Positions 19,291 through 41,474 of a DNA stretch of 41,474 nucleotides are shown here, piece by piece (position 1 is the stretch's first letter; each line of letters begins with the position of its first letter). The stretch spans positions 1-41,474 of the IMG/VR virus record IMGVR_UViG_2734482774_000012. One strand, given 5' to 3'. The notes under the pieces are model-generated. The model did not search any database. It was given only the letters and a program-made list of their open reading frames with translations, and was not told the origin of the DNA. Position numbers and translations under genes: made by a program. The stretch is from a virus. Its lineage: Duplodnaviria; Heunggongvirae; Uroviricota; Caudoviricetes.

Positions 19291-19365
19291 GGGTCAGTCG
19301 TATAAAGGTCATTACGGAAGGCTGTTAACCTTCTTATCGTGGTTCGAGTCCACGCTGTCCCGCCA
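19291..19365 (+). tRNA. Phage-encoded tRNA-like gene (manual fold suggests anticodon GUU, Asn)
   Basis: 75 nt ending CCA; perfect anticodon stem GAAGG/CCTTC with loop CTGTTAA; T-arm CGTGG-TTCGAGT-CCACG; acceptor stem 6/7 pairs. Isotype unverified. Confidence 0.45.
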
Positions 19366-19370
19366 AACAT

Positions 19371-19446
19371 GCTGGTTTAGCTCCAATGGTAGAGCGGTCG
19401 CCTTGTAAGCGAATGGGTAGCGGTTCAAGTCCGTTAACCAGCACCA
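19371..19446 (+). tRNA. Phage-encoded tRNA-like gene (manual fold suggests anticodon UGU, Thr)
   Basis: 76 nt; perfect 7-bp acceptor stem GCTGGTT/AACCAGC, D-arm GCTC-CAATGGTA-GAGC, anticodon loop CTTGTAA, T-loop TTCAAGT, 3' ACCA. Confidence 0.55.
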
Positions 19447-19688: not shown

Positions 19689-20012
19689 ATGAAGATGCCA
19701 GAAAAACATGACCTGTTAGCCGCCATTCTCGCGGCAAAGGAACAAGGCATCGGGGCAATCCTTGCGTTTGCAATGGCGTACCTTCGCGGCAGATATAATG
19801 GCGGTGCGTTTACAAAAACAGTAATCGACGCAACGATGTGCGCCATTATCGCCTGGTTCATTCGTGACCTTCTCGACCTCGCCGGACTAAGTAGCAATCT
19901 CGCTTATATAACGAGCGTGTTCATCGGCTACATCGGTACTGACTCGATTGGTTCGCTTATCAAACGCTTCGCTGCTAAAAAAGCCGGAGTAGAAGATGGT
20001 GGAAATCAATAA
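19689..20012 (+). CDS. S: Holin (lambda S-type, class I, dual-start)
   Basis: [45 protein letters not shown]... nearly identical to lambda S107/S105; Met1 and Met3 both present. Confidence 0.95.
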
Positions 20013-36595: not shown

Positions 36596-37081
36596 TTATC
36601 TAATGTTGCTGCTACTGTTGCATGTGACGGTGTTTCCAAATCCTGAATTGCAGTTTGTATATGTGTCAACGCGTGTTGGGTAAGGTTGAGTTATAACAGG
36701 CTGGCGCGCTTTTTGCTCGATCGCTTGCATTGTGTTTACAGCCTGATAATTCAATAAAGCCTGCTGGAATGCTTGGCTTTGCGCTATTTGTTGGGCTTGT
36801 TCTTGGCTTTGTAATTGAACATAAAGATTCTGAAGCTCAAGTCTTGCCTGTGCGTCACTTATCTTGCCTTCATCGACACCTTGCCCGAGCATCTTCGCAG
36901 CAAGGACATACAGCTTAGGTGTTGGTGCTGATGCCATGCGTGAGTCGTTCTTCACGCTGGCATCAAGGCAATTAGCCATATCACTAAGCTTTGGATAGCG
37001 TTGTTCGCAACTTGCTTGGTAGTCACTTACTTTTGCGCATCCAGCCAGCAGAAGCGGGATAATTAATAGTGATTTTTTCAT
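36596..37081 (-). CDS. Predicted outer-membrane lipoprotein (161 aa), unrecognised
   Basis: Signal peptide with canonical lipobox LLAGC, +2 residue Ala; Q-rich helical middle; Cys-containing C-terminus; last gene of the mnt-side operon. Confidence 0.65.
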   Translation of the reverse strand: MKKSLLIIPLLLAGCAKVSDYQASCEQRYPKLSDMANCLDASVKNDSRMASAPTPKLYVLAAKMLGQGVDEGKISDAQARLELQNLYVQLQSQEQAQQIAQSQAFQQALLNYQAVNTMQAIEQKARQPVITQPYPTRVDTYTNCNSGFGNTVTCNSSSNIR

Positions 37082-37106: not shown

Positions 37107-37421
37107 TTATTTATCAGAAGTTAGATTGTAATAATTGGTATAAGCTGAAATTGACTTCTGGCATGCTTCAAGAAACTCCTGTGGATTCATTCCAAGTCTT
37201 GCTTGCTCTGTGGTCAGAAAACGCTGTAAGAACTCATCTCCGCCAGGCATTTTTGTTGATTCTTGAAATGTTGCCATTTGTTTGATTGTGCCGCACATGC
37301 CAGCAAATTTCGAAGTTATCATGAGTTCTTGCAGGCCTTTAAGATCGCCATTATCTGATTTTTGTTTGGCGCAAACTATTGTAGAGAAGAACAATATTAA
37401 CAAAATAGCGATGCGTTTCAT
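37107..37421 (-). CDS. Predicted exported protein (104 aa), unrecognised
   Basis: N-terminal signal peptide MKRIAILLILFFSTIVCA; ATG overlaps the mnt stop (ATGA). Confidence 0.55.
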   Translation of the reverse strand: MKRIAILLILFFSTIVCAKQKSDNGDLKGLQELMITSKFAGMCGTIKQMATFQESTKMPGGDEFLQRFLTTEQARLGMNPQEFLEACQKSISAYTNYYNLTSDK

Positions 37422-37986: not shown

Positions 37987-38910
37987 ATGAAAAGTATAGC
38001 AACAGCAGTATCTACTATCAACGTGCCATTCCACGGCGCAGAGCTTTATGTCGTCAATCACAACGGTGAGCCGTACACCCCAATGAAACCTATCGTTGAG
38101 GGAATGGGGCTAGACTGGAAATCTCAACATAAGAAGATTTCTCAACGCTTCTCGAAGGGTATGGTGGAAATCACCATACCTTCTGCCGGTGGGGTGCAAG
38201 CCATGATTTGTATGGCTTTACGAAAATTGGCAGCTTGGTTGAACAGCATCAGTCCTAACAAAGTCCGCCCTGAAATCCGCGACAAGGTAATCCAGTATCA
38301 GGAAGAGTGTGACGATGTGCTCTACGAATACTGGACTAAAGGCTATGTGGTTAACCCGCGCAAAGCTAAAAAGGCGTTGCCTGGTAAAATCACCACTGAA
38401 CAGCAGGAAGCTATTAAACAGCTCGTCATGAGTCGCGGTCAGTCTCTGCCAAAAGAAAAACAGGCGAAGGCGATGATCACCATGTGGTCGTCACTGAAAT
38501 CCCATTTTGGATGTTCGTACAAAGAAATTAGTGAGGAGCAGTTTACCGAAGCACTGTCACTTGCAGCTCGAGTTCCACTTGAAGGTGAGTTCATCGGCAA
38601 ACAAGAGAAGAAAACCAACGAGCTTTCTGCAAAAGAAGCAAACAGCCTTGTATGGTTATGGGATTATGCCAACCGCTCACAGGCATTATTCCGCGAACTG
38701 TATCCGGCATTAAAACAAATTCAATCGAACTATTCCGGCAGATGCTACGACTACGGTCATGAGTTCTCGTATGTTATCGGAATGGCGAGGGACGTTTTAA
38801 TCAATCACACACGAGATGTTGATATTAATGAGCCAGACGGACCAACGAATCTTTCCGCATGGATGAGACTTAAGAATAAAGAATTACCTCCTTCAGTACA
38901 TAACTACTGA
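37987..38910 (+). CDS. ant: Antirepressor Ant (307 aa)
   Basis: Position after mnt/arc; size and N-terminal domain typical of P22-type antirepressors (recollection). Confidence 0.75.
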   Translation: MKSIATAVSTINVPFHGAELYVVNHNGEPYTPMKPIVEGMGLDWKSQHKKISQRFSKGMVEITIPSAGGVQAMICMALRKLAAWLNSISPNKVRPEIRDKVIQYQEECDDVLYEYWTKGYVVNPRKAKKALPGKITTEQQEAIKQLVMSRGQSLPKEKQAKAMITMWSSLKSHFGCSYKEISEEQFTEALSLAARVPLEGEFIGKQEKKTNELSAKEANSLVWLWDYANRSQALFRELYPALKQIQSNYSGRCYDYGHEFSYVIGMARDVLINHTRDVDINEPDGPTNLSAWMRLKNKELPPSVHNY

Positions 38911-38927
38911 CAGATAACCAACGCAAC

Positions 38928-38952
38928 GACCCAGCTTCGGCTGGGTTTTTTT
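38928..38952 (+). terminator. Intrinsic terminator after ant
   Basis: CCCAGC-TTCG-GCTGGG hairpin followed by TTTTTTT. Confidence 0.65.
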
Positions 38953-39010
38953 ATGCCCAAAATTCACCGTGGCCACGCTGCGGCGATTCATTGTATCTGG
39001 AGCAAATTAA

Positions 39011-41002
39011 ATGACAGACATTACAGCCAATGTGATCGTATCGATGCCTTCGCAACTTTTCACTATGGCTCGTTCTTTTAAATCAGTAGCCAATGGCAAA
39101 ATTTATATCGGTAAAATTGACACTGACCCGGTAAATCCTGAAAACCAGATTCAGGTTTATGTGGAAAACGAAGACGGTTCTCACGTTCCTGTTGAACAGC
39201 CAATCATCATTAACGCTGCTGGATATCCGGTATATAACGGACAGATTGCCAAATTCGTAACTGAGCAAGGCCATTCTATGGCTGTTTATGATGCGTATGG
39301 TTCTCAGCAGTTCTATTTTCCGAATGTGCTGAAGTATGACCCAGATCAGTTTGCATCAAAGTTAGCTTCAGATTTAGGAGCGTCAATGATCGGTACATCT
39401 AATGGTGATACGGTTCAGCAGTGGCTTGATAAATTCCCCCCATTATACGCTGAAGAATTTGGTGACCTATCTGTTACAGACGCAACAACAATACTACAGA
39501 ATGCAATAGATTCGGCATCATTACAATGTCGTGAATTAAAAGTAAGGACGCCAATTATAAATGTTAGGCAACTCAAGCTACCCAACAATACCATTTTGAA
39601 TCTTGGTATGTGCACTTTAAGACAAATATCTAATACAAATAAGCCGTTAATCAGAAACGATGTGTTTGGATATACTGATAAAGTTCATACAAACTCAAAT
39701 ATTACTATTATTGGTGGGGTTCTTGATTTTAATGGTTCAAACCAGTCTGACACTACGGCAACAGGAGAAGTTAATGTCGGCTGTGCATTTTTTGGGGTGA
39801 AAGGCCTTCATTTTCGTGGCTCAACAAAATTCATTAATGCCAGACGTTATAGTTTTTTTGCTGCAAATTGTGCAAACATTACTTTTGATGATCCGGTTGT
39901 TGAAAACGACCCGGCAATACCAAGTAGCAATAAAGATGGCTTACATTTTTGCGGAAAAGTTTACGGTATTTCAATAAAAAGTATTTATGTTTATAACCCA
40001 GAAGATGATGCACTAGCTATAAATGCTGATGATGTAGATCATGGTGGGGAATGGACTCGCGCTAACATTACTGGAGCAATAGATAATGTTTGGGTTGGGC
40101 AAGTTCGTGTGGATGGTCCTTCATCGCATAACGGTGTGCGTTTGCTAAGTGCGTCACCCAACACACCTATTTCAAATGTGAAAATTGATTCAATTGTAGG
40201 TAAAGTAGATAATTATTTTCTTAATATTCAACCATACGGTTTAGGTACCTCATCGGTATACCACAATATTGATATCGGCATTATAGGAGGAATATATTCT
40301 GTCAGAACCAATCCTGCATTTACTCATGGCATGGTAAATATCTACACTATGAAGCCGAACCCAGCAGTTTTGAATAATATTCATATTGGTCAGATTTTTC
40401 GTGATCAGGAAATTGGCGATGGACAGGATCGTCCGACTGTACAGTTATGTGTTGAAAACACTTCTGTTACATTTGATAAAATTGTCGAGCAGAATTGTGC
40501 TAATGATGCTGTCGTTAGGGTAACGGAGATAGGACCTGCGGCTTTTATAACTCTAAACGAAGCATACAAAAAATCCACCCGAACCTTAACTCCTGGTGTG
40601 TATGGTTCCATCGTAATTGTAAGTAATGTTAACGACAATCAACTTGAACACCTTAAAATTGGATTCAATTCTGCAGATAGACTACGTCACGTTGTATTGG
40701 CAAGGTCTGTAAAAATTAAACGTTTGGATATGTTTAGTGATGGTTCAGCAGACAACATCCCTCTGTATCTTGAATCATCCCAGGTAACTAATCTTAATTG
40801 GAATAGTAGTGTTCCATCCACTTATCAATTTACTGCACATCGCTATACGCTTTCAGGTGAATCGTCTGCTGTAATATTTGAACGCCCTGCTGTTACAGGT
40901 GGGAGTACTACAGAACGCCCAGTAAATGCAATAATTGGTGACAGTTTCTATGATACGACAACGAATACTCGTGTGAACTGGAATGGATTTAATTGGGTGT
41001 GA
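39011..41002 (+). CDS. Tailspike: P22 gp9-type head-binding domain fused to a divergent beta-helix receptor-binding domain (663 aa)
   Basis: First ~115 residues ([17 protein letters not shown]...[38 protein letters not shown]...[13 protein letters not shown]...NVLKYDPDQ) closely resemble the P22 tailspike N-terminal domain; the remainder has parallel beta-helix composition but does not resemble P22 gp9. Confidence 0.85.
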
Positions 41003-41403
41003 TGCAACAGGAATGGAATCTAGTCGATGCACTGTGGTATATAATGTGAAAATTAGTGCAAAAAAAACTCAATCATTACATGTTAATATTTGTCTTATGC
41101 TAATGCCTAATTTGCTATTAGGAGGTAACTACAATATAAATCCAGCTATGAAATAATTACATCATCTCCAGAAATCACCTGAAAAAACCACTAGACAGAA
41201 CCAAGACACACAAAGCTTTGCACTGGATTGCAAGGCTTTGTGCTCTTCTATGCTGAGTGGCTACATGTTTGAAGATCGTTGTGCCGTATTTGTGACATAC
41301 ACATGACAACATCATGCATCAACTTTCTGTTTGTGCCATCAACTATTGCTTGGTGAATGCGGTTAATGCTTGCTAAAACAGATAGTTATGATTGGTGCTA
41401 CAG

Positions 41404-41450
41404 ATTCGTAATGCGAAGGTCGTAGGTTCGACTCCTATTATCGGCACCAT
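41404..41450. repeat. attR core: 47-bp direct repeat of the thrW 3' end
   Basis: Exact copy of 1399..1445; the preceding ~400 bp is AT-rich and non-coding (attP arm). Confidence 0.85.
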
Positions 41451-41474
41451 TAAAATCAATAAGTTACACATCAT

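Follow-up and report, generated by a model that had tools for sequence, protein, structure and literature searches.

The C-terminal domain of the tailspike is established as the receptor determinant in the phages P22, Sf6 and HK620, and tailspike receptor domains in general decide which strains can be infected; they also serve as typing reagents, depolymerases and exchangeable modules in engineered phages and tailocins. Swapping of these domains is the ordinary route to host change in such phages. P22 gp9, Sf6 gp14, HK620 gp9 and the CUS-3 spike have a common head-binding domain, the same gene place, closing the late region beside att, and the same layout of head-binding domain, neck and long parallel β-helix, with endorhamnosidases in P22 and Sf6, an endo-N-acetylglucosaminidase in HK620 and an endosialidase in CUS-3. 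Tailspikes of the P22-like type act as homotrimers whose endoglycosidase activity destroys the receptor; the site lies inside a single subunit in P22 and HK620 and between subunits in Sf6. The tailspike described here shares domain, place and layout with all four, but its receptor domain has no detectable sequence similarity to theirs (12–16% identity in structural alignments) and carries motifs that resemble GH28 and are unlike those of the four known enzymes. Module exchange between tailspikes is already known; what is new here is a rare receptor domain that is absent from sequenced phage isolates.

The window, by which we mean the whole analysed stretch of 41,474 nucleotides (IMG/VR record IMGVR_UViG_2734482774_000012), is E. 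coli chromosomal DNA containing the early and late gene sets of a P22-like phage. Its left end is occupied by proA (1–1254, Aldedh family), followed by the intact tRNA-Thr(CGT) gene thrW (1369–1444), which adjoins a tyrosine integrase on the minus strand (1459–2619), and near its right end attR (41404–41450, plus strand) duplicates 47 bp from the 3' part of thrW as an exact repeat of 1399–1445. The source phage is a complete P22/CUS-3-like temperate podovirus prophage integrated at thrW in E. coli, with CUS-3 as the closest backbone (morphogenesis half 94% identical, 70% coverage) and a Sf6-type tail-needle knob gene also encoded. The tailspike gene (39011..41002, plus strand) is an ATG open reading frame of 663 codons plus stop with a GGAG located 8 nt 5' of the start codon. 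It stands behind gp7, gp16, two Arc-like genes and a P22-type antirepressor, that is after immI (mnt/arc/ant)-like genes, closing the late region like gene 9 of P22, and the position of attR shows that it is the final gene of the prophage. A terminator-like hairpin with a T-run (38928–38955, plus strand) is found 3' of the ant-like gene and 56 nt before the tailspike start. On the other side, 207 nt past the tailspike stop, a pattern scan detected a hairpin with a 14-pair stem and a weak T-run (41209–41242, plus strand); the copy of this region in E. coli BA92 loses its homology to the window at 41248, and the tailspike cassette probably ends at the hairpin.

The first-pass annotation had described residues 1 to about 115 as close to the N-terminus of P22 gp9 and the remaining ~550 residues as divergent, and both statements were borne out. 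Residues 1–113 cover the full Pfam profile PF09008 (Head_binding, 1–113) with E = 1.7e-64 and 215 bits at a cut-off of 24, and the tailspike N-terminus aligns with that of Sf6 gp14 (7sg7, E = 4e-67 in a phmmer search of the PDB) as well as with the P22 gp9 structures 2vky and 1lkt (E = 6e-51 and 6e-44). Counted identities in this module are 104/113 (92%) to Sf6 gp14 and 84/116 (72%) to P22 gp9, a similarity that far exceeds chance. Homology shows residues 1–114 (39011..39352, plus strand) to be the conserved particle-attachment module by which the spike would be fixed to the tail hub. When 50,697 phage records were searched with megablast, 29 P22-like phages including CUS-3, HK620, Sf6, epsilon34, N7 and IME10 covered nt 1–~342 of the gene only (85–93%), and the end of homology to these phages falls at nt 339–362 of the gene. 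At the protein level, homology to proteins with other anchors begins at aa 107–123; we place the module boundary and neck at aa 115–140 (39353..39430, plus strand), including a 19-residue neck motif at aa 123–141. The composition changes as well, with a G+C of 0.38 in the C-terminal part against 0.47 prophage-wide and a GC3 of 0.26 against 0.39 in the head-binding part.

Beyond this boundary the same receptor domain is found on other anchors. Two tailspikes of 762 aa (P0109 and P0112) have an anchor of the phiV10/epsilon15 type (Uetakevirus), the first 240 aa of P0109 sharing 85% identity with the phiV10 tail fibre, and from aa 117 they carry a receptor domain 93% identical to that of the window; their DNA matches the window at 95% identity between 39431 and the stop codon but not past it. 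The anchor of these two is unrelated to that of the window tailspike, their phage backbone differs, and holin and endolysin genes stand downstream of them where the window has att. More distant versions of the domain are attached to a phiV10/epsilon15-type anchor in P0004 (70% domain identity), to a Pfam Tail_spike_N anchor in P0002, P0003, P0005 and P0006 (65–72%), to another Head_binding anchor in P0012 (43%; its 90% cluster includes the Citrobacter freundii protein P0123) and to other anchors in P0009 and P0010, named Providencia sneebia and Pandoraea apista (39–41%). Among three Lederberg-type copies of the gene the opposite part varies, as 17/20 and 12/14 codon differences fall in the first 342 nt, while the 1,650-nt receptor part is 99.8% identical with 2–3 codon differences. 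As the receptor part differs at so few codons and occurs on other anchors, it is a mobile cassette recombining at the neck (aa ~114–140), a pattern that has been described for E. coli tailspikes (PMC10408124). The earlier suggestion of tailspike domain swapping is therefore well founded, with a sharp DNA break at codon ~114–120, a drop in GC3 and the same domain on three other anchors. These data show lateral exchange of the receptor module, an AT-rich cassette that recombines at the neck between anchor types and that already circulates among at least two temperate phage types. The tailspike itself looks functional, and its gene is a real but ordinary instance of module exchange.

The cassette is uncommon. 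A tblastn search with residues 120–663 against the 50,697 phage records gave no match at E ≤ 1e-3, a sequence search of the PDB gave none beyond aa 125 of the tailspike, and neither Pfam nor NCBIfam gave a hit for residues 120–663. Comparison of these residues with known tailspikes, as proposed by the first reading, thus matched no phage tailspike and no PDB sequence, and identity of the whole protein to a tailspike of known specificity was found neither among INPHARED phages nor in the PDB or BFVD. Using a word-indexed search of 5.8 billion proteins we obtained 11 matches to the C-terminal domain, and HMMER, run exhaustively over 1.84 billion cluster representatives, gave 100 at E ≤ 1e-3 and 11 at E ≤ 1e-30. 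Twelve contigs carry the identical protein. The 90% cluster to which it belongs comprises 71 members, each named either 'phage head-binding domain-containing protein' or 'hypothetical protein'; the full-length matches are unannotated prophage copies only. Among 5,426 complete E. coli genomes two carry full-length copies, and a contig of a draft assembly (AATSLK020000013.1 in GCA_013113445.2) is 100% identical to the window over 38800–41474. In the literature we found no paper citing the protein accessions and none joining tailspike, GH28 and O-antigen. The receptor domain is rare, uncharacterised and absent from sequenced phage isolates in the 50,697 records.

To this domain the first-pass annotation had attributed the composition of a parallel β-helix glycanase, and structure prediction agreed with a β-helix. 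An AlphaFold2 model of aa 116–663, computed as a monomer from an alignment of 10 homologues, reached a mean pLDDT of 89.0 and a pTM of 0.87, with a pLDDT below 50 for model residues 1–18 (aa 116–133), and in it a short helical cap precedes roughly twelve turns built of short strands. Residues ~141–623 (39431..40879, plus strand) are clearly predicted to fold as a right-handed parallel β-helix, which would be the receptor-binding and catalytic domain. In structural comparisons the model scored 30.2 with the epimerase AlgE4, 30.1 with phi29 gp12, 29.9 with the K5 lyase, 29.5 with a GH87 glucanase, 28.8 with the Erwinia polygalacturonase (17% identity) and 27.8 with the HK620 tailspike over 434 residues. 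We also tried to name a family by Foldseek against the PDB and BFVD, but the matches were generic β-helices (E ≥ 2e-5, TM 0.3–0.6, at most 16% identity), so that no specific family could be named from structure.

A family relationship was suggested by profile comparisons, for which we used an alignment of close homologues (A1) and one of 23 sequences consisting of the query and trimmed distant homologues (A2). The distant homologues carry Pfam GH28 and Pect-lyase_RHGA_epim matches, with P0032 matching GH28 at E = 1.7e-12. The A2 profile matched plant and bacterial GH28 structures with E = 3.8e-18 to 1e-8, the best being 8ikx (3.8e-18), 7b8b (1e-17), 5olp (1.3e-14) and 3jur (1.3e-12), and its alignments place NqDGlH on NTDGIH, teDDaiA on GDDCISI and GiRLLS on GVRIKS. 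The A1 profile alone paired the same residues when aligned by hhalign with the Arabidopsis polygalacturonase PGLR (8ikx; 90% probability, E = 1.4e-6).

Three motifs of the tailspike correspond to these positions. In NKDGLH (aa 307–312; 39929..39946, plus strand) A1 shows no variation at N, D, G and H, and A2 none at D309 and H312; D309 corresponds to the Asp of the GH28 NTD motif. An 11-residue motif (aa 331–341; 40001..40033, plus strand), opening with EDD at 331–333, contains D332 and D333 as counterparts of the catalytic Asp-Asp pair of GH28; here D332, D333, A336, N338, A339, D340 and D341 are invariant in A1 (D217, D218, A221, N223, A224, D225 and D226 in the A1 numbering of the 548-aa query) and D332 also in A2. 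The third, HNGVRLLSA (aa 373–381; 40127..40153, plus strand), has NGVR, L and SA invariant in A1, with R377 corresponding to the Arg of R-I-K in GH28. The catalytic Asp positions and the Arg are kept in A1 homologues down to 39% identity. A further A1-invariant motif, DHGG (aa 343–346, with D343 and H344), faces CGPGHG of GH28 in a gapped part of the alignment and resembles the G-H-G motif of that family no more than loosely.

In GH28 enzymes three aspartates perform an inverting hydrolysis, and the R-I-K motif binds the carboxylate in pectinases. Compared with PGLR (8ikx), ADPG2 (7b8b) and Erwinia PehA (1bhe), the tailspike domain has the same right-handed β-helix, predicted in its case, and the NxDGxH, DD and G-x-R motifs are shared and aligned, with a kinship that is visible at the profile level only. 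It differs in a much longer helix, a C-terminal extension, the fused phage anchor, an additional conserved NADD after the DD pair and an invariant Leu at the position of the R-I-K Lys (NGVRLLS vs NGVRIKS), and the query has no match to Pfam PF00295 (GH28) at E ≤ 1, below the gathering score. The receptor domain thus appears to be a distant relative of GH28 glycosidases with conserved catalytic aspartates. Given the Leu for Lys, the extra NADD and the sub-threshold Pfam score, we describe it as working like a GH28 hydrolase and do not assign it GH28 membership. Its substrate is certainly not pectin.

From these features a mode of action can be proposed. The head-binding module (aa 1–114) would anchor the spike on the tail hub, while the β-helix would bind a surface polysaccharide and cut it hydrolytically via the putative GH28-type site, with D309, D332 and D333 as candidate acid/base and water-activating residues and H312, H344 and R377 as possible helper residues. 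Through this cleavage the virion might advance to the outer membrane in the manner of P22, Sf6 and HK620. By analogy with these phages, the C-terminal domain would also define the host receptor. The complete reading, in which the tailspike of this P22/CUS-3-like prophage carries a swapped β-helix that binds a surface polysaccharide, likely the O-antigen, and hydrolyses it by a GH28-type mechanism, is in our judgement reasonably probable.

The assignment to the O-antigen comes from the genes next to relatives of the domain. Three relatives adjoin a gene for an Acyl_transf_3+SGNH protein of 609–630 aa, namely P0005 in a siphovirus-type prophage (L007 10110–11993), P0004 in a Uetake-type prophage (L010 8002–9894) and P0012 in a P22-type prophage (L014 8026–9855). 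Acyl_transf_3+SGNH is the architecture of the O-antigen acetyltransferases by which temperate phages bring about lysogenic conversion, and these neighbours point to the O-antigen as receptor class for the domain family. Judged from the gene neighbourhoods of its relatives the substrate class is most likely the O-antigen, and the receptor domain is most likely a GH28-type O-antigen endoglycosidase. No acetyltransferase lies beside the tailspike in the Uetake-type copies (93% identical), where holin and endolysin are the downstream genes. In the window neither a gtr nor an acetyltransferase gene was found 3' of the tailspike, and blastn and tblastx of 41003–41474 against the loci of the relatives did not reveal a remnant acetyltransferase either.

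Prophage tailspikes have been linked in general to the host serogroup (PMC10408124), and we examined whether a serogroup could be named from the host genomes. No serogroup could be assigned, as the two complete-genome carriers have unrelated O-antigen (rfb) clusters, one of them disrupted. The tailspike was not enriched with either cluster among the genomes possessing it (1/2 and 1/18 genomes), and a specificity for the O-antigen is therefore without direct support from host serogroups. In BA92 the rfb cluster has the composition rfbBA-fdtACB-wzx-GT-wzy-GT-manCB and occurs in 2 of the 5,426 genomes; the genome is titled O2:H16, a label with which this cluster is at odds.

The unrelated O clusters leave room for a capsule or another glycan as receptor, and the domain might accordingly be a depolymerase of a capsule (K antigen) or other exopolysaccharide and not of the O-antigen. 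The spike of CUS-3, the nearest backbone, is a K1 endosialidase and offers a precedent, and the missing O-antigen modification gene beside the tailspike in the window fits with it too. We nevertheless consider a capsular substrate rather unlikely, because the Acyl_transf_3+SGNH genes adjoining the three domain relatives are typical of O-antigen conversion, because the active-site motifs are of the GH28 hydrolase type and unlike those of known capsule lyases, and because both carriers retain the colanic-acid locus at galF, so that neither has a group 1 capsule there.

A related idea concerns the domain as a family. It has a candidate signature, NxDGxH followed by DDxxAxNADD and GxRLLS, with ~100 representatives among 1.84 billion proteins. 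Since the O clusters of the two complete-genome lysogens are unrelated, the target of the spike could be a modification common to both, a capsule or another conserved glycan. That the domain represents an uncharacterised family of GH28-related glycosidases, which may target a polysaccharide of E. coli other than the serogroup O-antigen, seems to us decidedly unlikely.

We give still less credence to a β-helix that binds without cutting, or that performs lyase, epimerase or deacetylase chemistry despite its GH28-like motifs. The loss of the GH28 Lys and the score of the query below the Pfam GH28 threshold would agree with such a function, but homologues as distant as 39% identity all keep the three Asp and the Arg, D309 and D332 are kept across the 23 members of A2, and in the profile search alginate epimerases are weaker (E = 1.6e-5) and are outranked by GH28 hydrolases (E = 4e-18). 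A tailspike of already known specificity or an inactive remnant has hardly any chance of being the right description, since the C-terminal domain is unmatched in the 50,697 phage records, the PDB and BFVD, no paper citing the accessions was found and, although the BA92 copy lies within a degraded prophage, the window ORF is unbroken and its prophage complete, both att sites included, identical protein copies lie on 12 contigs, the 90% cluster numbers 71 members and the copies differ by 2–3 codons per 550.

Naming the glycan would extend the tailspike-to-serogroup table by one entry and give a further characterised branch close to GH28, with the general understanding of tailspike biology left unchanged.

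The last 40 residues of the tailspike (aa 624–663; 40880..40999, plus strand) form a separate C-terminal motif that matches phrog_20787 (E = 8e-6), and apart from this motif PHROGs and NCBIfam were uninformative for the receptor domain. Further matches of this motif are to the C-terminus of CBA120 TSP3 (6nw9, 583–615) and to 9d83 Gp49. With CBA120 TSP3 (6nw9/5w6f) and other Tail_spike_N (PF18668) spikes the window protein has in common the neck motif and, within this C-terminal stretch, a ~35-aa motif of the form GST-x-RP...YDTT...WN. CBA120 TSP3 is also a β-helix spike (Foldseek E = 3e-5), but its β-helix body is not homologous to that of the window tailspike at the sequence level and its anchor differs. 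The C-terminal motif is furthermore present as tandem repeats in the unrelated proteins P0068, P0081 and P0098.

To compare the two modules of the tailspike (39011-41002, plus strand), we counted differing codons between three independent prophage copies, separately for the head-binding module (39011-39352) and the receptor module (39353-41002). Nearly all differences fall into the head-binding module with 12-17 differing codons in 114, whereas the 549 codons of the receptor module contain only 2-3. This uneven distribution indicates that the receptor cassette has spread recently onto diverged anchors.

Strain BA92, one of two complete-genome carriers of the tailspike, harbours it in a prophage that is heavily degraded (L001 1-9412, NZ_CP176406.1): a number of its genes are truncated, and no morphogenesis genes were found near the tailspike in this region. 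Here the tailspike directly adjoins intS and tRNA-Arg (argW), an attachment site other than thrW, where the copy in the window is located. The O-antigen cluster of BA92 (L004 13303-25852 of the same record) carries fdtA/C/B-like genes together with manC/manB and lacks rfbC and rfbD, and its wzx-wzy segment occurs in only 2 of 5,426 complete genomes. The strain is titled O2:H16, a serogroup label that looks doubtful.

Related tailspikes with receptor domains 43-70% identical to that of the window are found in three distinct prophage types, siphovirus-type, Uetake-type and P22-type, and each adjoins an Acyl_transf_3+SGNH gene (L007 10110-11993, L010 8002-9894 and L014 8026-9855, the latter on the minus strand) encoding a product of 609-630 aa. 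Such a neighbour was found neither beside the window tailspike nor beside the 93%-identical Uetake-type tailspikes.

The tailspike ends in a conserved motif of ~40 aa (aa 624-663, window 40880-40999) with the consensus ERP..GGST.ERP.NA..GD.FYDTT....V.WNG..W, which matches phrog_20787. CBA120 TSP3 (6nw9 583-615) and the Gp49 protein in 9d83 end in the same motif. The large, unrelated proteins P0068, P0081 and P0098 contain 4-9 tandem copies of it, and one of the three shows a faint DUF2510 match.

Between the gp16 and Arc-like genes, at the site occupied by sieA in P22, the window has two small minus-strand ORFs (36596-37081 and 37107-37421). Neither has a Pfam match. A lipoprotein (MKKSLLIIPLLLAGC..., phrog_6067) is predicted for one of them, while the second (phrog_19844) possesses a signal-peptide-like N-terminus. 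The prophage also carries its own tRNA-Asn(GTT) and tRNA-Thr(TGT) genes (19291-19446), located upstream of a series of plus-strand ORFs starting at 19689.
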